NCBI GenBank assembly: GCA_943788815.1
Contig: CALSRS010000001.1
Span: 900,069-964,068, forward strand
Direction: 5' to 3'
DNA length: 64,000 nucleotides
DNA from: an uncultured Gammaproteobacteria bacterium
Lineage (GTDB): Bacteria; Pseudomonadota; Gammaproteobacteria; Eutrophobiales; Eutrophobiaceae
Shown: positions 1 to 52,607 of the stretch, in pieces
Position numbering within the stretch: the first letter of the stretch is position 1
Layout: each line of letters opens with the position of its first letter
The notes under the pieces: generated by a model
Seen by the model: the letters and a program-made list of their open reading frames with translations, nothing else
The model's database searches: none
What the model was told of the DNA's origin: nothing
Program-made: the position numbers and the translations under genes

Positions 1-880
1 ATAATGTATTGAATGCAACGCTACGTAAAATCCCAGGCTCAGTATTAACCCAGACCCACATGGCTATTGCCGCAATCAATGCCTCAACCATAATTCCTGC
101 GGCCGCTACCAACATGCGCTGATGTTTATTTCGAAATGAAGCTGAAGATGAGGCGTCAACATACGGAACAGGCATAAAAATCAGGAACATTACCCCCATC
201 TCATGCACTTCCCCTCCCCAACGTTTAACCGCATAGGCATGACCGAACTCATGTACCAGTTTGACAATGGGATAGATTAACCAGATTAGAAAAAGATTTT
301 CCGTGGCCAGAATACGATCGGCAAGATTTTCGGTCAGTTGTGGCCAATGGTAAGCTGCCTGAGACAAAGCCCAGAGGATAAAAACCAGCCAGATCACCGC
401 CATGACCGGGTTATAAATCCATTTGCTGAACCCAGCAGTGCGGTTCAGAAAAGCTTCCGGATCAAGTAAAGGAAATTTGACGGCAAGCGGAGATTTAATG
501 ACTGACCAGAACTTGGTTTTTCTGGCCTTTTCACGTCGTTCATTTAATTCCAGAACATCAGGGGGCATATCCGTCTGAATAACATCAACACGATGTAATT
601 GGGATAAAAGTTTGATTACCTCATCCTGTGAGGGCATATCATCACCGAGTTGCTCACCGGCACAATGCCAGATATCTTCAAGTGAACGCTGTCCATTCAT
701 TAAACCAATTAACGAATATGCTTCGTCATTGAAACGATGAAATCGACCTGTAGCATCGTCTTGAATTACATACCAGACATCACCACGGTAGACATGACGG
801 TTAATCTCAACATGAGAACGTAATTTGGGTTTAAGATTGGCAACCCGATACCAGGATTCACTAAATAGTGAAACTGACAA
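1..880 (-). CDS. Peptidase M50 (site-2 protease family) membrane metalloprotease. Only the N-terminal ~293 codons are in the window; the gene continues beyond the window start. Probable TTG start at 878-880, directly after the TAA of the upstream gene.
   Basis: My own reverse-complement translation (this ORF is not in the supplied track because it has no stop in the window). It reads ...WYRVANLKPKLRSHVEINRHVYRGDVWYVIQDDATGRFHRFNDEAYSLIGLMNGQRSLEDIWHCAGEQLGDD...IWLIYPIVKLVHEFGHAYAVKRWGGEVHEMGVMFLIFMPVPYVD... The HExxH zinc motif (HEFGH, nt 236-262) lies inside a hydrophobic helix, as in M50 proteases. The ~60-aa N-terminal segment resembles a PqqD/RRE-like peptide-binding fold (…A..L..L.DG.R(S/T)L..IW…DV…L..L….VI…). 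It sits in the same frame immediately after the TAA stop at 881-883, which suggests translational coupling. Confidence 0.6.
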   Translation of the reverse strand, partial: MSVSLFSESWYRVANLKPKLRSHVEINRHVYRGDVWYVIQDDATGRFHRFNDEAYSLIGLMNGQRSLEDIWHCAGEQLGDDMPSQDEVIKLLSQLHRVDVIQTDMPPDVLELNERREKARKTKFWSVIKSPLAVKFPLLDPEAFLNRTAGFSKWIYNPVMAVIWLVFILWALSQAAYHWPQLTENLADRILATENLFLIWLIYPIVKLVHEFGHAYAVKRWGGEVHEMGVMFLIFMPVPYVDASSSASFRNKHQRMLVAAAGIMVEALIAAIAMWVWVNTEPGILRSVAFNTL

Positions 881-2707
881 TTATGGCCACCATTCCCACA
901 GTTTCAATTTAATCCACTGTTGCAGTGGATAGGTCCAGATCCAGATAAGCTTACGTTCGTCTACCTCGATCTTACCCACGCCTTCCATCCCTGGCCGCAA
1001 CTGTAAAATTGATTCACTTAAGGTCGCCTCGACACGAAAATAATTTCCGCCATCACGGGCCTCGGTTACCGGAGTAACCTGGGTAACAATAAAGTCAAAG
1101 GTATATTCAGGTAAAGAGTTAAGAATGAGACTGCCCTGCAACTGTTCTTCGATTTCAGACATTCTATGTTCATCTACCCAGAGAATGATGCGATATTTAT
1201 CAAGTGGCGCGACCTCAAACAACACCTCGCCCTGCTCTACCGCACTGCCCAATCGCTGACTCAACTCACCACTGACAACGAGACCATCGAACGGTGCAAG
1301 CAGACGGGTCCTTGATAGTTGACTTGAAATAAGTTCTAGTTGCGCATTGTTCTGCTCGAGCTGGGCCTGGATAACTTTTGCTTCGGACCGGTTCTGCTCG
1401 GCAACAGCACTCTCATACTGGCTTTGGAGTTTGGCTTGCTCACTCATAGAACCGAGTTTTTCCAAAGTCAGATCCCTGTCATCAAGGTTAGACATAATTT
1501 GCCCTTCGGTGACATGTTCTCCAGCCCTGACATTAGCAGATTCTAGATAACCATCAAATGGCGCAACAATGGCGCGGCGGATTGACGGCTCCAGGATACT
1601 GTCAGCGGCAACTCTATAAGTTCCGGTTGCAAAGTTAAAAAATACAACGAGGGTAAGCAGGCAGATGAGTGCTAGTTTTCGTCCGAGATAACCTTTACCT
1701 ATTATCCTTTGTAGTTGTTCCACAGTGGCAGTATATAAATGGAGATACCAGGATTTATCCTGCAAATATTTTGTGCGCAGGGCCTCGCCTGAGAGTGCGA
1801 CTATACTCTGAATCTGATCAACTTCATGTTCTAGAAAAGGTTTCTCGGAATCACGTTCCAGGGTAACCGCGGCAAAATATTCTTCACCTGAATGAAGTGG
1901 AATAGAAAGTAAACTGGCATTCCCATATGAGAGTGAAAATTGAGCATGCTCCCTGTCCACCAGTAATTTATTATCATGTTCACTATTGGGGTAATTGATG
2001 ATTCCACGCTGAACAACGGCTTCATCCATTACTCCAGCAAGACGACGAATCAAATTCATCTTTTTGCCAAATTGCGCACTATGAGAAAGAGCAGCTACTT
2101 CGATTTTCAAGCCTTTATTCATGCCAATACTTACTCGTTCACAATCGAACGCAGAGGTAAGTTTATTAACGAATGTCATGGAGGCACTATTAAATCCAGT
2201 TTCTGCAAGTACAGCGCCCAATAATTCCACTGCACCAGACAACCTATCAAGTTGAGTATTTTTCTCTTTGCCATCATGACGTCGCAAAAAGAGTTCTATC
2301 CAGGCACTACCCCACTGTATTTGTTCCATGATCCTGGGTAATGCTGATTGTGGTACGCGGACAGAAAGCGCGACAACACCTTTTAACTCGTTATCAAGCC
2401 GGATGGGAAAAGCTACACCATACATACCCGAACCAAGAGAATGAACAAGACCTGCGGCTTCTTCAATTGATTCCTCTAGCAGGGAAGTCAGACTAGTAGC
2501 GGGTTGGGTCTTTTCAGGCCACAGGGCCGCAGGTTGAAAACCTGATTCACCATTATCCAGAACCAATATAGCCTGACTGATGCTATCAAGCCGAATACAG
2601 ATTAATTCAAGCCAAAACTGGCAATATTCCTCATAGCTTGATGCAGCGGAAAAGTTGACCCAGACCTCACGCAAGCTGTTCTGGGTATCATCGGAATCAA
2701 TTTGCAT
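881..2707 (-). CDS. HlyD-family periplasmic adaptor (membrane fusion protein) with a ~320-aa N-terminal cytoplasmic extension predicted to contain tandem GAF-like sensor domains.
   Basis: 608-aa ORF. A single TM segment (LALICLLTLVVFFNFATGTY, aa ~325-345) is followed by a typical MFP periplasmic region. That region has a lipoyl-like hairpin (VAPFDGYLESANVRAGEHVTEGQIM…LLAPFDGLVVSGELSQRLGSAVEQGEVLFEVAP), a short coiled coil and a beta-barrel tail. The N-terminal 320 aa are hydrophilic with two alpha/beta repeats (e.g. …AILVLDNGESGF…GVVALSVR… and …ERVSIGMNKGLKIEVAAL…), consistent with GAF. The annotated ATG at 2705-2707 has no Shine-Dalgarno sequence (the upstream mRNA is CUUAUUCCUUCCUUGUU), so the true start may differ. 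Confidence 0.7.
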   Translation of the reverse strand: MQIDSDDTQNSLREVWVNFSAASSYEEYCQFWLELICIRLDSISQAILVLDNGESGFQPAALWPEKTQPATSLTSLLEESIEEAAGLVHSLGSGMYGVAFPIRLDNELKGVVALSVRVPQSALPRIMEQIQWGSAWIELFLRRHDGKEKNTQLDRLSGAVELLGAVLAETGFNSASMTFVNKLTSAFDCERVSIGMNKGLKIEVAALSHSAQFGKKMNLIRRLAGVMDEAVVQRGIINYPNSEHDNKLLVDREHAQFSLSYGNASLLSIPLHSGEEYFAAVTLERDSEKPFLEHEVDQIQSIVALSGEALRTKYLQDKSWYLHLYTATVEQLQRIIGKGYLGRKLALICLLTLVVFFNFATGTYRVAADSILEPSIRRAIVAPFDGYLESANVRAGEHVTEGQIMSNLDDRDLTLEKLGSMSEQAKLQSQYESAVAEQNRSEAKVIQAQLEQNNAQLELISSQLSRTRLLAPFDGLVVSGELSQRLGSAVEQGEVLFEVAPLDKYRIILWVDEHRMSEIEEQLQGSLILNSLPEYTFDFIVTQVTPVTEARDGGNYFRVEATLSESILQLRPGMEGVGKIEVDERKLIWIWTYPLQQWIKLKLWEWWP

Positions 2708-2816
2708 AACAAGGAAGGAATAAGATTACTGAGTTAGATTGAAACATTCAGATATAACTGAATATTTTAAACTTGCTACTAAATAACTTTATCAACTCTG
2801 ATGATAGCCACTATAG

Positions 2817-3134
2817 CTACTCTCCAGTTGTAATCCCGCTGATCTGACCATAGCGTTCTTCATATTGATCCAGGACATTACTTAGTAATATTGACAAGCG
2901 CTTGGCAGCATATGGACTGACGAGAATACGGTCTGAGAGTTCTATCGAAACTTCTTTTTGCTGTGCATTCCAGGCCTGATTGAGACCAAAAAATAATGCG
3001 ATTTCTTCCCGAGTGCTGGCAACGTTACATACATTTGCATAAGTGCTCTTCATTTGCGAATCATCCCAATTTATCTTAGGGGGAGTATTAGTAGCAGCCG
3101 GCTTACTCGCCGTTGTGGTTTTTTTAGTGACCAT
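2817..3134 (-). CDS. Small conserved hypothetical protein, DUF3467-like, translationally coupled to the giant gene.
   Basis: 105 aa. It has a good SD (AAGGA) 7-8 nt upstream of the ATG and starts only 14 nt after the giant gene's stop codon. The motifs …INWDDSQMKSTYANVCNVASTREEIALFFG… and the C-terminal …AAKRLSILLSNVLDQYEERYGQI match my recollection of the DUF3467 family. The family assignment is from memory, not from a search. Confidence 0.45.
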   Translation of the reverse strand: MVTKKTTTASKPAATNTPPKINWDDSQMKSTYANVCNVASTREEIALFFGLNQAWNAQQKEVSIELSDRILVSPYAAKRLSILLSNVLDQYEERYGQISGITTGE

Positions 3135-3148
3135 TATTTTTCCTTATA

Positions 3149-6100
3149 TTAATTTAACCTGATTCTTTTAAGTGCATTTTCCCACTCACTATGAGACACG
3201 AGCACATCATCTTCATCTCCTAAAAAACACTGACTGTTTTCATCCCAGTACCTGACTTTTCGCTGTTTATGATGCAACTTATCGATGCCTTTTTGATCTA
3301 TTCGTATATTACCTTTACGCTCGCCATTTGTCAGTTTCCAACCAGTTAATCCTGCAAGAAGAGCGGACTCTATCACTATACTATCAGAGTACTCCGCCAT
3401 ATTATCATCGGCAATAACTAAACCTTGTTGATCTTGAGCAGGTAGCATAAAGGTTGTACCTTCTGTATTAAGATCGTTCCTGTTCGCGCCAGCCGACTCA
3501 TCTTCTTGAGCATCAGTTTCTTCTTCTGGCACACCTGGCTCTGAGTCTTCAATTTCAGATGGATCCTGAATATTGGTAGTTTCTGTTGCTGTCTCGAGTT
3601 CCTGATTTTCTGTTTCATCTGGACCCTCTTGCTGAATATCAGGCCCGCCTTCTACTTCATTAAGTTGCTGATTTTCAGTTTCATCGCTATTTAACCTTGT
3701 CTCATCTACATTTATATACTCATAAGAATGCGTGTCGATAAAGCTCTGATATTCAATAATTCCTTCTCTGGAATAAATTGTCCCTGTGTCTTCATCAATT
3801 TCTTCCGGAACATCAGGCAAGTTCAGCGGGGCAAGAAGATTACCTACGGCTTCATTCTCTTCTTCCTTATTTTCATATAGTCCAGATGTGGTTGCAGCCA
3901 ATAAATCCAGAGAGCCTTGTGCAAGGTAAGTAATAGCAATTACTTCACCATCATCTTCGTTCTGAGTAAGATACGCATATTCACCAGACAATATGTCATC
4001 CGATAATACTGCATTAAATAAATCATTACCAAAGCCGCCAAACATACTGTCATTACCATCTCCACCATCGAGAACATCATCATCACCTATAAACAACTCC
4101 GTTGTTTCTGAAATAACCAGCTGGCCATTAATAAAGGTTGCCCTACCGCCGTCACCAGAAATAAAATCACTGCCTTCATCACCATATAGCTCGTCAGCTG
4201 CTGCGCCACCAATAATTACATCATCATCTTCACCACCATGGACCTCATCCTCGCCACCATTATCTGAGAAAAGACTCTCAACCATATCTAGTGTGTTGGG
4301 ATCGGAATCTGTTAAATTAAAGACAGCGATGCCAAGATCGCCAATCACTATATCCTTACCTGCGCCGGTAAATACTAATTCATTCCCCAACCCACCGATG
4401 ACAAGGTCATTACCGGCACCGCTATCGATGGTGTCATCACCAGATGTTGTCAGGTTTGTGTCCGTCGTAAAATACTCATCCGCCAGACCATTGATATAAT
4501 CGGCAATACCATTATCACCAAAGATAATGTTATCACCGTCTGCGATGGTTACCTGATCATCACCAACACCTGCAAATACCAGGTTATTTCCACCACTTAC
4601 AGAGATGATATCATCTCCGCCCAGGGCACTTAATTCGCTTTCAACCTGGACGCGTTCACCACTACTGCCATATCTGACTGTGCCATTATCACCCAAATAA
4701 ATACTGTTACCAGCGCCAGATTCTATGGTGTCGGCACCACCCCCACCGATCACAACTTTATCGCCATCGCCCATAGTTACATTATCATTACCACCTATAT
4801 TACTTTCGGTATTAAAAATAGTGCTCTTGATCCCCGCTGTCCACTGAATCTCGCCGTTATCCCCCATTACATAATCCGTACTGTCTCCGGTATCAATGTC
4901 ATCACCGCCCACACCACCAATCACCACATTTACATCCGTGGCACTGGCACCGCCCAGCGTCAGAGTGTCTGCACCACCAGCAGTGCTGGTGCTCTTCGCC
5001 ACTTCCAATATGTTATTGGCGTCATATCCAATCTCACCCTCATCACCCACCACATAACGTGTGCCCACACTGCTCAGCGTCGTCGTCACCGTGTCCTCAC
5101 CCAGTCCAGCTATTACCACCTTGTCACCACTGCCAAGGGTAATACTGTCATTGCCACCGGCCTCACCCAGATAACTCTGCATGTTAATCAACTGCTCAGA
5201 ACCCGCAGGTCCTGTATACGTCATCACACCGTTATCGCCCACAACATGGTCGGTACTCGTCGCCGCCACTACCGTAATCGTGTCGTCATCACTGCCACCA
5301 ATTACCTGGTTCACATCCCCCGACAAGGTGATCGTGTCCTGGCCACCATCAGCATTGGCCGTGCTCTTCACCGTGCGCAACGCGCCAGTCGCATAAACGA
5401 TCTCGCCGTTGTCTCCAATCACACGGTGTATGCCAGACGTCCCGGTGTCCACCGTGTCATCCGCCATACCGGCTATCACCGTCTTCGAGCCATTACCCAG
5501 GTCAATATCATCATTGCCGCCAAACGCACTGTTGAGGCTCACCATGCTATCGATAATGCCACCCGTCCACTGAATCTCGCCGTTATCCCCCATTACATAA
5601 TCCGTACTGTCTCCGGTATCAATGTCATCACCGCCCACACCACCAATCACCACATTTACATCCGTGGCACTGGCACCGCCCAGCGTCAGAGTGTCTGCAC
5701 CACCAGCAGTGCTGGTGCTCTTCGCCACTTCCAATATGTTATTGGCGTCATATCCAATCTCACCCTCATCACCCACCACATAACGTGTGCCCACACTGCT
5801 CAGCGTCGTCGTCACCGTGTCCTCACCCAGTCCAGCTATTACCACCTTGTCACCACTGCCAAGGGTAATACTGTCATTGCCACCGGCCTCACCCAGATAA
5901 CTCTGCAGGTTAATCAACTGCTCAGAACCCGCAGGTCCTGTATACGTCATCACACCGTTATCGCCCACAACATGGTCGGTACTCGTCGCCGCCACTACCG
6001 TAATCGTGTCGTCATCACTGCCACCAATTACCTGGTTCACATCCCCCGACAAGGTGATCGTGTCCTGGCCACCATCAGCATTGGCCGTGCTCTTCACCGT

Positions 6101-9100
6101 GCGCAACGCGCCAGTCGCATAAACGATCTCGCCGTTGTCTCCAATCACACGGTGTATGCCAGACGTCCCGGTGTCCACCGTGTCATCCGCCATACCGGCT
6201 ATCACCGTCTTCGAGCCATTACCCAGGTCAATATCATCATTGCCGCCAAACGCACTGTTGAGGCTCACCATGCTATCGATAATGCCACCCGTCCACTGAA
6301 TCTCGCCGTTATCCCCCATTACATAATCCGTACTGTCTCCGGTATCAATGTCATCACCGCCCACACCACCAATCACCACATTTACATCCGTGGCACTGGC
6401 ACCGCCCAGCGTCAGAGTGTCTGCACCACCAGCAGTGCTGGTGCTCTTCGCCACTTCCAATATGTTATTGGCGTCATATCCAATCTCACCCTCATCACCC
6501 ACCACATAACGTGTGCCCACACTGCTCAGCGTCGTCGTCACCGTGTCCTCACCCAGTCCAGCTATTACCACCTTGTCACCACTGCCAAGGGTAATACTGT
6601 CATTGCCACCGGCCTCACCCAGATAACTCTGCAGGTTAATCAACTGCTCAGAACCCGCAGGTCCTGTATACGTCATCACACCGTTATCGCCCACAACATG
6701 GTCGGTACTCGTCGCCGCCACTACCGTAATCGTGTCGTCATCACTGCCACCAATTACCTGGTTCACATCCCCCGACAAGGTGATCGTGTCCTGGCCACCA
6801 TCAGCATTGGCCGTGCTCTTCACCGTGCGCAACGCGCCAGTCGCATAAACGATCTCGCCGTTGTCTCCAATCACACGGTGTATGCCAGACGTCCCGGTGT
6901 CCACCGTGTCATCCGCCATACCGGCTATCACCGTCTTCGAGCCATTACCCAGGTCAATATCATCATTGCCGCCAAACGCACTGTTGAGGCTCACCATGCT
7001 ATCGATAATGCCACCCGTCCACTGAATCTCGCCGTTATCCCCCATTACATAATCCGTACTGTCTCCGGTATCAATGTCATCACCGCCCACACCACCAATC
7101 ACCACATTTACATCCGTGGCACTGGCACCGCCCAGCGTCAGAGTGTCTGCACCACCAGCAGTGCTGGTGCTCTTCGCCACTTCCAATATGTTATTGGCGT
7201 CATATCCAATCTCACCCTCATCACCCACCACATAACGTGTGCCCACACTGCTCAGCGTCGTCGTCACCGTGTCCTCACCCAGTCCAGCTATTACCACCTT
7301 GTCACCACTGCCAAGGGTAATACTGTCATTGCCACCGGCCTCACCCAGATAACTCTGCAGGTTGCTGAGTTTTTCTGCACCTGCAACACCTGAATAGGTC
7401 ACGATCCCCTGATCACCCAATATATGGTCGGTACCATTTGCACTGATGATCGTATCTATCCCGCCACCACCGAGAACGACATTATCCCCTTGACCAGCAA
7501 TGATCTGGTCATCACCCGGTAACACAGAGACCGTGGTCCTGGTCTGATACAGGACGTCTGTCAGTGTGACCTCACGGGCATCGAACACGGCTGGATTACT
7601 TTCTATGATGTGAGTGCCTGTCGTGGTGATCAGATCAACCGCACCATGGTCACCGAAAATAATATCGTTACTGAAATCAATTAACGGATCGGCATTAAGA
7701 ATTTCACCATAGAGATAGTCGTTACCATCGCCACCAAAAATAATGTCATCACCTGCATCGCCGTAGATGATATCGACACCGTCGCCGCCCTTGATAATAT
7801 CCTCATCATTCCCGCCCCGGATCCGTACCGCTAAATCTGCGGTGGAGGCATCGATAACATCGGCGCCAGCATTACCCCAGATCTGTATGCGGCGTTCTTC
7901 AATGGGTAGTAATAATAAATTATGTGCAGGCGCCAAAAGATTATCTGTGGCAGTGATAATGATATCGTCATTACCTTCATTGGCATATAACTCTGTAATG
8001 GTAATGCCGGTCATCTCAATACTGCTCACGGTAATGGTATCGTCACCCTTACCGGCCCATACCACCAGGCCATTGTTAAAATCCCCACCCGCGGCATCAT
8101 AATTAATCGTGCCAACGGCCAGACCGCTGATACTGCCGTCTGACATCTGTGCATTTTTAGCTACGGTGTTATCAAAATCACTGATAAAGAGGGCGTTATT
8201 ACCGACGCCAGCATCAATGTTCAACTCACCCTGTACACCATCGAGATTCCCGTCGGCAAGTAACTGGTTAACAAAATAACCATCGGCAGTGGAGCTAACA
8301 TGGAATTGCTCGTCACCCACACCGGTATTAATGTTGGTGACGGTATTAAGGCTAGTGGCCTGGACATTAATAGTGTCAGTTCCGCTCCCCGTGTTGATAG
8401 TAAGGGTGTCAATTCCATAATAGTTAATGCCATCAGTCCGGGTTGCCAGTTCAGTATCACCAACAATGTCATTGATATCTGTGGCCAGGATACTGTAACC
8501 GGCATATTCACCCTGGAAGGTAAAGATAAAATCATTATCGGCTTTGACTACCGAGAAGTTATCCGTCTCAGGGTAGAATTGACGGCGTTCCTGGGTATTA
8601 TTCGGATTAAACAGGTAGTTGAGTTCGTCAAACCAGGTATCTGCATCAGCGGGATTTGCCTTAAGTTGCGGGATATCGCCGGCGCTGAAAGTCACGGACC
8701 CAACCGGAATGCCGGTGTGGTCAAGGTCACCTGGTGCGTAAACTGTTAAAACTATATTTCCACTTCCTACACTGATGGTTTGTACGGTATTTAATTCTGG
8801 TGTAGTAGTACCTTCTGTCAGGTAATTCACCCTGGCCCGTGGTGCGAATGGTGTTGTATCCGATATGGTCAGGTCGCGATGCTGGGCTTCCAGGTCAGTA
8901 AAATCTACCGTGCCGGTAGTGTAATCAACAACATATGTCCTGATTCCGCTATTAATACTCAAATTAACATTAATATTTACATCGTCTTCAATCAGTAATA
9001 ATTGTGCGACCGCTACCTTCATGTCGGCATCAGAAGCGGTAGATTCCAACACAACCTGATCGGATATTGCCCCGTCATCCCCCCTGGCCAATAACACGTA

Positions 9101-49618: not shown

Positions 49619-50959
49619 TTACCTCTCCAACATCTGGTTGATCTGTTGCAGATCATCTGGAGTCAGAATACCAACCAGCGCCTTGAGCCTGAGCCCATTC
49701 AACAAATAATCATATTTTGCTCCTGCCAGGTCTCGTTTAACGGCATATAGATCACGTTCCGCATCGAGCACACTAATGGCTGTCTGTAACCGTGCTTCAT
49801 AGGCTGCACGCCTTAGATCCAGTGTTGCCTGCTGTGCGGAAAGTGCCTGTTTCAATGCATCTATTCTCTTTACCGCTGTCTCAACACTCCAGTAAGCATC
49901 TCGGGACTGACGCCGTGACTCGCGCATGATTCGAGTCAGTTCTTGCAAGGCACTACTATGGCGGGCAATCGCTTCGCGTTTTTTTGAACTAACCGCACCG
50001 CCAGAGTACAAGGGCATTGAAAATCTCAGCAAAATCTCCTGGGTCCCAACTTCGCTACCGCCGCCAAACAGCGTTCCTTTGGTATCCTGATTGTTATAAC
50101 GTGCAACTGCATCCAGTGTCGGATAATGCCCGGCTTTCTGGCGGGTAATTTCCGTACTCGCAACCTCAACCGCATGCTGCTGGGCCACCAGTGCCGGGTT
50201 TTGTTTCATGGCAGCATCCACCCAATGCTGCTCATCTGCGGGTTCAGGACTCCGCAGGGTGATCTCTTCCTGCAAGGCATTTAAAGAGTCTGCGTCTCTC
50301 CCCACGATTTCATAAAGTGCCTCTTGAGCGTCTCTCAACAAAACCTGCGCAGCAGCATAATCCGCTTCGACAGATGCCATTCTTGCCAGGGCATCATAGG
50401 TATCAACTGAGCGACCCACCGCAGCCTGTTCCCTGCCCCTTGCCAATTCCAGTTGTTTTCCTACTGCGATGCGTTCTGCATCCAGAAAACTGATTTCATC
50501 CTCAGCTGCGAGGGCAGAAAGATAGGCCTCGGATACCCGTAGTATTAAGTCCTGCTGTGCCTGTATCAGTTTCGCATCTGCCAATTTCAATTCTTCTTTT
50601 GCCTGACCAATACGCTTATAATTGGCATACCTGAAAATTGGCTGACTGACCGACAGTGTCCACGTGGTGGTAGGAAAGCTGGTCTTACCCTGTTCAAACA
50701 CAGCATTATCACTGCGCTTGATTTTCTGGGTGGTTTCGATCCTATCCACCTCGAAAGTAGCCGTTGGTCGATAGCCAGCCCAGGCCTGGGGTATGACTTC
50801 CTGGGTTGCGGTATGATCAAAGATTGCTGTGTTTAATTTGGGATCAGCCTGAAGTGCCTCCTGGTATAACCCAAGAAGATCATCAGCATTAGCTGAAGAT
50901 AATAAAAGAATAAATAAAAGAACAATCCTGTAAGCAGGAGCAATTAAAAACCGTTCCAT
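49619..50959 (-). CDS. tolC: TolC-family outer-membrane channel protein (type I secretion outer-membrane component).
   Basis: 446 aa with an N-terminal signal peptide (LLFILLLSSANA) and the motif DDLLGLYQEALQADPKLNTA typical of TolC N-termini. Two internal repeat halves have a coiled-coil/beta pattern. The gene lies 258 bp upstream of the giant gene on the same strand. Confidence 0.85.
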   Translation of the reverse strand: MERFLIAPAYRIVLLFILLLSSANADDLLGLYQEALQADPKLNTAIFDHTATQEVIPQAWAGYRPTATFEVDRIETTQKIKRSDNAVFEQGKTSFPTTTWTLSVSQPIFRYANYKRIGQAKEELKLADAKLIQAQQDLILRVSEAYLSALAAEDEISFLDAERIAVGKQLELARGREQAAVGRSVDTYDALARMASVEADYAAAQVLLRDAQEALYEIVGRDADSLNALQEEITLRSPEPADEQHWVDAAMKQNPALVAQQHAVEVASTEITRQKAGHYPTLDAVARYNNQDTKGTLFGGGSEVGTQEILLRFSMPLYSGGAVSSKKREAIARHSSALQELTRIMRESRRQSRDAYWSVETAVKRIDALKQALSAQQATLDLRRAAYEARLQTAISVLDAERDLYAVKRDLAGAKYDYLLNGLRLKALVGILTPDDLQQINQMLER

Positions 50960-51264: not shown

Positions 51265-51624
51265 ATGAGCAATAATAGCGAGAAATTAGTTAAAGATATA
51301 CGTCGTCGTACCCGTAAGAAGTATTCCTCTGAAGAAAAGATCCGAATTGTACTGGAAGGGATGCGTGGAGAAGAAAGCATTGCCGAGCTGTGTCGCCGTG
51401 AAGGATTGAATCAAAACGTGTATTACCGCTGGAGTAAGGAGTTCCTGGAAGCGGGTAAACAGCGTCTGGCGGGCGATATAAAACGGGAAGCAAACTCCAC
51501 TGAAGTGACCGACCTGAAGAAAGAAAATGACCAGCTCAAACGCCTGGTGGCTGACATCATGCTGAAGAACGAGGTACTTAAAAAAAGTGTGCTTGGCTTG
51601 GAGTCGACCTGGGAAGACGAATGA
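51265..51624 (+). CDS. IS3-family transposase OrfA (HTH, leucine-zipper-like C-terminus).
   Basis: 119 aa. The protein …EEKIRIVLEGMRGEESIAELCRREGLNQNVYYRWSKEFLEAGKQRL… is characteristic of IS3/IS911 OrfA. Confidence 0.85.
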   Translation: MSNNSEKLVKDIRRRTRKKYSSEEKIRIVLEGMRGEESIAELCRREGLNQNVYYRWSKEFLEAGKQRLAGDIKREANSTEVTDLKKENDQLKRLVADIMLKNEVLKKSVLGLESTWEDE

Positions 51625-52607
51625 GTCTTTCAGCAGCTGAAAAGCTGGAAGTGATCCGCTTGGTAGAGGCGTCGGAATTACCCGTGAAACGCACTCTGGC
51701 CGAGTTAGGTGTGAGCCGCAGCAGTTTCTATCGTTGGTATCGGCAATACCTGGATGATGGTCCAGAGGGCCTGGAGCCAGATAATCGGTCCCCGAGACAG
51801 TTCTGGAATAAGATACCTGAGATGGTGAAGGAGCAGTGTCTGGAGCTCGCGTTACAGTACCCTGACAAATCGCCTCGGGAACTTGCCTGGACCATCACCG
51901 ATGAGCACAACTACTTCATCTCGGAATCCAGCGTTTATCGACTGTTAAAGCAGTACGATCTCATTACCAGTCCTGCTTATATCCTGATGCAAGCGGGTGA
52001 TTCGTTTCAGAATCCAACACGACGAGTCAACGAGCTTTGGCAGACTGACTTCACCTACTTTCGTATTGTTGGTTGGGGGTGGTATTACCTGTCCACTGTT
52101 CTAGATGATTACTCCCGCTACATCATTGCCTGGAAGTTAACAACCAGCATGGCAGCTGATGACGTGAAGCAGACGCTGGATGCGGCGATTGAGACCACGG
52201 GAGTCAACGAGATAACGGTCAAACACCGACCTCGCTTACTGAGTGATAACGGGCCTTGTTATATCTCCTCGGAATTGAAGGATTATCTGAGTAAATATCA
52301 GATGCAACACACCCGTGGCGCACCGTACCATCCCATGACACAAGGCAAGATAGAGCGATATCACCGCTCCATGAAGAACGTCGTGAAGCTGGAGCACTAT
52401 TATTATCCGTGGGAACTCGAACATGCTATCCGGCAATTTGTACAATACTACAATCATGAACGTTACCATGAGTCACTTGATAATATTACGCCGGCAGATA
52501 TGTATTTTGGCCGCTATCATGAAATTATGGATAGAAGAACCATTATCAAATACGAAACATTACAACAGAGGAGAAAGGAAAATTTAAGAATATATATAAA
52601 TCAGTGA
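51621..52607 (+). CDS. IS3-family transposase OrfB (integrase/rve DDE catalytic domain).
   Basis: 328 aa. The protein …WQTDFTYFRIVGWGWYYLSTVLDDYSRYIIAW…LLSDNGPCYISSELKDYL…HTRGAPYHPMTQGKIERYHRSMK… shows the D, D(35)E motifs of the rve domain. It is in the -1 frame relative to orfA (gacgaATGAgtc). Confidence 0.85.
   Translation: MSLSAAEKLEVIRLVEASELPVKRTLAELGVSRSSFYRWYRQYLDDGPEGLEPDNRSPRQFWNKIPEMVKEQCLELALQYPDKSPRELAWTITDEHNYFISESSVYRLLKQYDLITSPAYILMQAGDSFQNPTRRVNELWQTDFTYFRIVGWGWYYLSTVLDDYSRYIIAWKLTTSMAADDVKQTLDAAIETTGVNEITVKHRPRLLSDNGPCYISSELKDYLSKYQMQHTRGAPYHPMTQGKIERYHRSMKNVVKLEHYYYPWELEHAIRQFVQYYNHERYHESLDNITPADMYFGRYHEIMDRRTIIKYETLQQRRKENLRIYINQ

Follow-up and report, generated by a model that had tools for sequence, protein, structure and literature searches.

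A HlyD-type adaptor with a tandem GAF module in a putative ABC-less export locus for giant bacterial proteins

A conserved gene module comprising a protein with GAF and HlyD/Biotin_lipoyl domains, a Peptidase_M50 protein, a secondary SecA_DEAD protein and an HlyD protein, sometimes accompanied by an OEP protein, was described by Kamneva, Poudel and Ward (PLoS One 2015; PMC4452313), who already proposed a sensory role for its GAF+HlyD component. The sections of that article drawn on here place the module in Methylobacterium extorquens as well (META1p2402-2399 of strain AM1 is one example), report a single GAF domain, leave DUF3467 unnamed, draw no tie to giant proteins with LEPR-XLL or DUF4347 regions, and have a re-analysis of microarrays as their only experimental side. 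Searching the literature on the module and its domains, we found no later experimental work; only PMC4452313 treats the module, and a 2026 preprint on the giant proteins of Chlorochromatium does not. We analyzed a 64,000-nucleotide stretch of DNA (the window) from an uncultured Gammaproteobacteria bacterium, which encodes on its minus strand a 608-residue protein that, judged from sequence, belongs to the GAF+HlyD family of this secondary SecA_DEAD module. The two modules, compared by domain composition and gene order alone, agree in both, and the single GAF reported in 2015 is a tandem here. The GAF+HlyD fusion is therefore not new, having been published in that article. New are a second GAF domain invisible to hidden Markov models (HMMs), an invariant set of residues in the other GAF domain, the fixed length of the segments that couple them, and a consistent link of the module to DUF3467 and to giant open reading frames (ORFs), which here carry LEPR-XLL, DUF4347 and RTX elements.

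HlyD, the adaptor of the HlyB/HlyD/TolC type I secretion system, reportedly has a cytoplasmic N-terminus of about 60 residues that is required for substrate-triggered recruitment of TolC. The protein studied here resembles HlyD and other membrane-anchored adaptors in having a cytoplasmic N-terminal part, a single transmembrane helix, a barrel-sandwich, a hairpin, a β-barrel and a TolC partner, and differs in that its cytoplasmic part extends over about 340 residues and is built as two GAF domains. We detected no ABC, RND or MFS transporter among the genes of the locus, as seen in the window and on an identical metagenomic contig that extends past the window start (L001), or at the loci of three other genomes. 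TolC and adaptors are thus present and an ABC exporter is not found, so the protein does not belong to a canonical type I system. A preliminary sequence-only reading of this DNA had held that membrane-fusion proteins normally have only a short cytoplasmic N-terminus, which overstates the contrast: transmembrane-anchored adaptors of ABC, MFS and type I systems possess sizable cytoplasmic domains that are essential to substrate recognition and assembly (PMC8277102, section 7.2).

Our preferred reading, to which we assign a probability of roughly 0.6, is that the ORF encodes the GAF-bearing adaptor of an ABC-less, type I-like and envelope-spanning export apparatus, with the tandem GAF as its sensing or docking end.

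Domain architecture and start codon of the adaptor

The region from 1747 to 2707 highlighted by the sequence-only reading covers the 5′ half of an ORF on the minus strand, the product of which is arranged as GAF-A, a connecting helix, GAF-B, a helical linker, a transmembrane helix and a HlyD-type adaptor (Table 1). An identical protein (100%; P0001) is already present in public data. GAF-B is recognized by the Pfam GAF model PF01590 at residues 178-309 (37.8 bits, cut-off 22.4), with GAF_2 and GAF_3 covering the same stretch at scores under their cut-offs, and residues 1-170 returned zero HMM matches. We therefore turned to structure prediction, using an alignment of 115 near-full-length homologues sharing 41-81% identity (alignment A1). 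The AlphaFold2 model of residues 1-340 has a mean predicted local distance difference test score (pLDDT) of 87.2 and comprises α/β units with strands at 43-117 and 191-285, a long helix (120-168) between them and two more helices (293-336) running toward the membrane. In a Foldseek search of the PDB, this model retrieved the tandem-GAF regions of PDE6, PDE5 and PDE2A and phytochrome GAF-PHY regions, with E-values from 3.5e-10 (rank 1) to 4e-7 (rank 50) over about 330-440 columns among the best 50 matches. The template-modeling (TM) scores are low (0.31-0.39), which we interpret as a result of the relative orientation of the two domains probably being different.

Since domain 1 lacks an HMM match, residues 1-168 were also modeled alone (pLDDT 90.3). 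Their top Foldseek match in the PDB is the Nlh2 GAF domain (4g3v_A; E 2e-5, TM-score 0.60/0.62), and further matches include 3p01, 3e0y and the GAF domains of PtsP (3ci6), Nlh1, CodY, the IclR-type PcaR, fRMsr and NifA. A comparison of domain 1 with domain 2 using hhalign gave an E-value of 0.004 and a probability of 8%, so that the repeat is barely detectable from sequence; as this is no proof of an internal duplication, the assignment of the second GAF relies on structure. In these models the two halves are two GAF folds that lack recognizable sequence duplication. The two-unit, GAF-like module that the sequence-only reading had placed before the transmembrane helix of a membrane-fusion protein is thus supported by Pfam for GAF-B and by AlphaFold and Foldseek for both units, and its description as two repeats holds for the folds and hardly for the sequences.

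By the positive-inside rule, the KGYLGRK segment that precedes the sole transmembrane helix places the N-terminus in the cytoplasm and the adaptor part in the periplasm, in agreement with the cytoplasmic placement of the module proposed earlier; a periplasmic location of the GAF domains was rejected. By domain content, the C-terminal half is a HlyD-type adaptor, matching HlyD_3 at residues 469-573 (60.3 bits, cut-off 22.2) and HlyD_D23 at residues 380-574 (43.3 bits, cut-off 30). The NCBIfam model TIGR01730 scores 84.4 bits, under its cut-off of 94.9, and is covered only from position 21 to 250 of 322, and the membrane-proximal domain therefore seems to be missing; TIGR01843 reaches 39.8 bits, under its cut-off of 208.65. 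The protein ends in a conserved Trp-rich tail, and the M50 gene starts one nucleotide past its stop codon, an arrangement that hints at coupled translation, and the tail may be an element that contacts M50 or the membrane interface.

The sequence-only reading had also noted that the annotated ATG lacks a Shine-Dalgarno motif and that the true start might lie downstream of the GAF region, which would leave this region outside the protein and make the fusion an annotation artefact. The first observation is correct: we found no Shine-Dalgarno motif in the upstream sequence (window 2708-2752, ttccttccttgtt). The ATG at 2707 is, however, the earliest usable start past the in-frame stop, its methionine aligns with the first residue in 110 of the 115 homologues, and conservation begins at position 16 against an overall identity of 30-40%, with W16, W32, L33, P59, W63 and P64 each kept in at least 90% of them. 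The next in-frame methionine, residue 95, is located within the GAF-A fold, which is modeled with high confidence. A Shine-Dalgarno motif was also unrecognizable in the three other members inspected (from Thiomicrorhabdus, Geobacter and one further genome; L004-L006). As the N-terminal region is conserved across homologues of several phyla, we conclude that it is translated and that the start codon is not in doubt; a downstream start is hardly credible. The lack of the motif in all four inspected members might indicate that this subunit is translated at a deliberately low rate or in a coupled manner.

Table 1. Features of the adaptor gene and its neighbors in the window (positions are those of the window)
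Feature	Positions	Strand	Basis
Peptidase_M50 gene, 5′ part	1..880	-	Begins 1 nucleotide past the GAF-HlyD stop codon; runs beyond the window
GAF-HlyD adaptor, complete ORF, 608 residues	881..2707	-	Stop codon 881-883; ORF list, Pfam, NCBIfam
Conserved Trp-rich C-terminal tail, residues 586-608, IWTxxLxxWxxLxxWxWWP	884..952	-	Conservation
Periplasmic membrane-fusion part (HlyD/RND_mfp-type): barrel-sandwich, 66-residue coiled-coil hairpin, β-barrel	953..1618	-	Pfam, NCBIfam, segment lengths
Single transmembrane helix, residues 343-363	1619..1681	-	Only hydrophobic segment; KGYLGRK on its N-terminal side
Two helices from GAF-B to the membrane, residues 293-342	1682..1831	-	Model; segment lengths
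GAF-B, residues 171-292 (Pfam match 178-309)	1832..2197	-	Pfam, model, conservation
Inter-GAF connecting helix, residues 118-170, Trp-rich motif MEQLQWGxxWxELLxRR	2198..2356	-	Model and conservation
GAF-A, residues 1-117, divergent GAF fold	2357..2707	-	Model and Foldseek; no HMM match
DUF3467 protein, 105 residues, directly upstream of the GAF-adaptor	2817..3134	-	Pfam
Presumed substrate, 15,403 residues	3149..49360	-	LEPR-XLL at residues 21-43 (NF012209), DUF4347 at residues 212-360, RTX repeats
TolC-family outer-membrane channel	49619..50959	-	TIGR01844, 270.9 bits (cut-off 225)

Conserved residues and a candidate binding site in GAF-B

Across the 115 homologues, the segments that connect the folded units have nearly constant lengths: the inter-GAF helix spans 53-54 residues, the linker from GAF-B to the membrane (residues 286-342) measures 57 residues in 107 of the 115, and the transmembrane helix and the coiled-coil hairpin are fixed at 21 and 66 residues, respectively. 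GAF-A itself varies, with a core of 74-103 residues. Its residues W16, W32, P59, W63, P64 and P101 are invariant or near-invariant (W32 and P101 strictly so, as is W132 in the connecting helix), and in the model these positions, together with the Trp motif of the connecting helix, look like an interface.

GAF-B presents a different pattern. S208, M227, E229, H254 and E284 are invariant and S210, N218, Q233, R252, T282 and R285 nearly so, and the conserved residues sit in the insert between β2 and β3 (a loop and helices) and in the final strand. The β2-β3 insert and the last strand are the elements that form the ligand pocket of GAF domains. From the order of the secondary-structure elements, we infer that the polar set S208/E229/H254/E284 would lie on the pocket side of the fold.

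The sequence-only reading had proposed that binding of a cyclic nucleotide, cyclic di-GMP or a metabolite to the module controls secretion or processing. In the second-messenger version of this idea, the tandem GAF would bind cyclic AMP, cyclic GMP or cyclic di-GMP and switch secretion or processing by an inside-out logic similar to that of LapD. The architecture lends itself to such a view, as the overall arrangement resembles the GAF-A/B regions of the cyclic GMP-binding phosphodiesterases (PDEs) PDE2, PDE5 and PDE6 and, like these and the cyanobacterial CyaB, has two GAF domains joined through a long helix, with a helical linker leading on to an output; the fixed length of that linker is typical of signaling proteins, and the conserved polar set of GAF-B suggests a specific ligand. 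However, the output here is a non-enzymatic transmembrane adaptor, there is no sequence similarity to the PDE and CyaB modules, and the TM-scores to the PDE tandems are low (0.33-0.39). The NKFDE motif (NK..F...DE) has no match in this protein and is missing in 114 of the 115 family members (one matches), and a search of PDB sequences with the GAF-B profile returned only uncharacterized bacterial GAF domains from structural genomics and no PDE or cyclase GAF. On this basis a GAF of the cyclic nucleotide-binding type was rejected. Domain 1 is closest to the bacterial-regulator GAF domains of Nlh2, PtsP, CodY and NifA, several of which we take to be metabolite binders. Neither cyclic nucleotides nor cyclic di-GMP are thus supported as ligands and, all in all, we regard a second-messenger gate as improbable; ligand gating by the module as such is plausible and unproven.

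The comparison with LapD fares no better. LapD is said to consist of a HAMP domain, a degenerate GGDEF-EAL pair and a periplasmic LapG-binding domain. A Pfam scan of our protein at E ≤ 1 returned only HlyD, GAF and biotin-lipoyl families, with no GGDEF, EAL or HAMP, and the neighboring genes tested with Pfam likewise hold no GGDEF, EAL, HAMP or cyclase domain. The likeness to the LapD/LapG-LapA system is therefore a loose analogy and is confined to the concept of a cytoplasmic sensor coupled to periplasmic control of a giant RTX-type surface protein; nothing is shared at the domain level, and the protease of this locus is an intramembrane M50 protein in contrast to the periplasmic cysteine protease of the LapG type.

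A further explanation is that ligand binding has been lost and that the module is purely a scaffold. In this view the tandem GAF oligomerizes the adaptor and provides a membrane tether for the SecA-like ATPase, the M50 protein or DUF3467, as a constitutive building block and not a switch. In GAF-A and the connecting helix, conservation falls mostly on Trp and hydrophobic residues of helices, as is typical of interfaces, which fits this explanation; so do the variability of the GAF-A pocket side and the fact that all related loci examined have the module, which is confined to this adaptor family. The invariant set of GAF-B does not: it is polar or charged (S, E, H and E, plus R, N, Q and T) and placed in pocket-forming elements, a combination seen more typically in specific binding sites than on packing surfaces. 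We consider a pure scaffold rather unlikely for the module as a whole. For GAF-A and its Trp-rich connecting helix, oligomerization or contact with a partner is a more probable function than ligand binding.

Gene context and distribution

The minus-strand genes of the window are ordered as TolC channel, giant protein, DUF3467, GAF-adaptor and M50, and L001 adds, past the window start, the rest of the M50 gene, a 660-residue SecA-like protein and a 270-residue adaptor with a signal peptide. The four adjacent genes of the secondary SecA_DEAD module are thus present on L001 in order. The M50 protein (L001 11828-13975) comprises 715 residues, with a weak PqqD-like N-terminus (of the kind that binds leader peptides), an HEFGH motif, about six transmembrane helices and an HlyD-like region at its C-terminus. 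The NCBIfam models closest to it are intramembrane proteases that process the leaders of ribosomally synthesized and post-translationally modified peptides (daptide and YydH/LiaK), the daptide match being under cut-off; the protein is a candidate protease for the LEPR-XLL leader of the giant protein. The SecA-like protein (L001 13976-15958) retains intact Walker A (MKTGEGKTL) and Walker B (VDEVD) motifs and scores under every SecA and SecA2 cut-off of NCBIfam. The matches end at about position 600 of about 790-810, so that the C-terminal portion found in canonical SecA is apparently absent. Public records label the protein ‘preprotein translocase SecA’ or even ‘prepilin peptidase’. DUF3467 has no significant relative among PDB sequences; that it might act as a chaperone or targeting factor of the giant cargo is offered purely as an idea.

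A search with the full adaptor gave more than 2000 matches, the best 120 of which are nearly all 600-640 residues long, cover 96-100% of the query and mostly carry precomputed GAF matches. Their source names range from ‘HlyD family/efflux RND transporter periplasmic adaptor subunit’ and ‘multidrug resistance efflux pump’ to ‘GAF domain-containing protein’. With the N-terminal 335 residues as query we obtained 1,951 representatives of clusters built at 50% identity, of which 177 have E ≤ 1e-30. The module is N-terminal in all of the best 150 representatives, which indicates that it is specific to this adaptor family, and the match runs as a single stretch across both GAF domains in 148; these proteins are mostly 590-645 residues long, the shorter ones resembling fragments truncated by contig ends. 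In a scan of one genome per species, relatives were found in at least 458 genomes, and the hosts include Gamma-, Alpha-, Beta- and Zetaproteobacteria, Desulfobacterota, Nitrospirota, Rokubacteria and an acidobacterium. Cultured carriers include Marinobacterium rhizophilum, Amphritea japonica, Geomonas paludis and Desulfoluna limicola.

We examined 80 genome loci, drawn from all the groups listed above, using tblastn. On contigs that reach far enough, the order GAF-adaptor, M50, SecA-like protein and short adaptor is kept nearly throughout, and DUF3467 lies upstream of the module in most of the 80. The sequence-only reading had suggested a survey of whether GAF-HlyD fusions are confined to loci with LEPR-XLL or RTX giants, and most loci are positive: a same-strand, stop-free ORF of at least 2000 residues runs off the upstream end in 35 of the 44 long loci (nearly all with a full 10 kb upstream flank), the giants being of the LEPR-XLL/RTX type. 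The giants called in three other genomes have 6,215, 10,547 and 11,432 residues. Approaching the module from the SecA-like protein, whose listed matches do not go beyond its own clade or below 47% identity, we found the GAF-adaptor and the same core order in all three loci reached, two of them from Syntrophaceae.

Several further observations concern the cargo and the borders of the locus. RTX repeats of the 15,403-residue protein are located near both its ends. Within its gene, at 4830-7307 of the window (minus strand), four direct repeats with a period of 726 nucleotides are 99-100% identical over the 300 nucleotides compared; they encode near-identical blocks of about 242 residues in the C-terminal part of the protein and suggest recent expansion, or a risk of assembly collapse. 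A second large DUF4347 ORF begins about 3 kb downstream of the apparatus genes (L001 20071-21827), perhaps encoding another giant cargo of the system. At 51265-52607 (plus strand), an IS3-type transposase pair (an HTH_Tnp_1 ORF followed by an rve integrase ORF) separates the TolC gene from the housekeeping block lysC-alaS-recX-recA and may bound the secretion locus with a mobile element. In two Syntrophaceae loci (L087 and L089, at about 1-3700), the five-gene core consists of DUF3467, GAF-adaptor, M50, SecA-like protein and short adaptor; on its upstream side L087 has a radical-SAM gene together with a methyltransferase, only a methyltransferase was identified there in L089, and an Amidohydro_3 gene is found downstream in both, as in L001. 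The cargo may differ in these two loci.

A working model for the export apparatus

Little is known of the ways in which bacteria export proteins exceeding 10,000 residues. In our preferred reading, the giant LEPR-XLL/DUF4347/RTX protein is the presumed cargo, a SecA-like motor would take the place of the ABC transporter, and the adaptor would sense or dock on the cytoplasmic side through its tandem GAF. The specific partner bound by GAF-B might be a small metabolite, a metal, or a segment of the cargo, of the SecA-like ATPase or of DUF3467. Its occupancy would be relayed through the fixed-length helical linker and the transmembrane helix to the periplasmic adaptor, which would then control assembly with TolC. 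Such a relay would be analogous to the part that the cytoplasmic N-terminal domains of type I adaptors play in substrate recognition and assembly. The order of the domains, the placement of the tandem GAF in the cytoplasm and of the adaptor part in the periplasm, and the strict co-occurrence and order of the module genes are shown by our analysis, and the relay is inferred from them. More specifically, and only tentatively, we suggest that the GAF-B site formed by S208, E229, H254 and E284 may be a dedicated receptor for a metabolite, a metal, or a segment of the cargo leader or of the SecA-like motor, and that it may license the assembly of an ABC-less, SecA-powered and TolC-dependent machine that secretes proteins of 6,000-15,000 residues.

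Several points weigh against the proposal that the module is the sensing or docking end of an export apparatus. A ligand, a partner or a secretion phenotype has been reported for no member of the family. The pocket placement of the invariant residues is derived solely from GAF topology. Given that the GAF module is universally and invariantly conserved, a constitutive structural role agrees with the data as well as a regulatory one does. Finally, the two Syntrophaceae loci hold the core genes and have no upstream giant, so that the link to the cargo is not universal.

In this widespread module, a SecA-like ATPase and an intramembrane protease seem to stand in for the ABC exporter of type I systems. 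The GAF-adaptor, being the sole component with a recognizable sensory fold, is a natural entry point for studying what triggers export, and the invariant residues of GAF-B are direct targets for mutagenesis. The names under which these proteins are now filed, multidrug or RND efflux adaptors, are misleading. Should GAF-B prove to be a receptor, the adaptor would be the checkpoint of an uncharacterized type of secretion system, in which a GAF domain signals through the inner membrane to an adaptor ring in the periplasm. The system thus presents an open and testable problem in the export of giant proteins.

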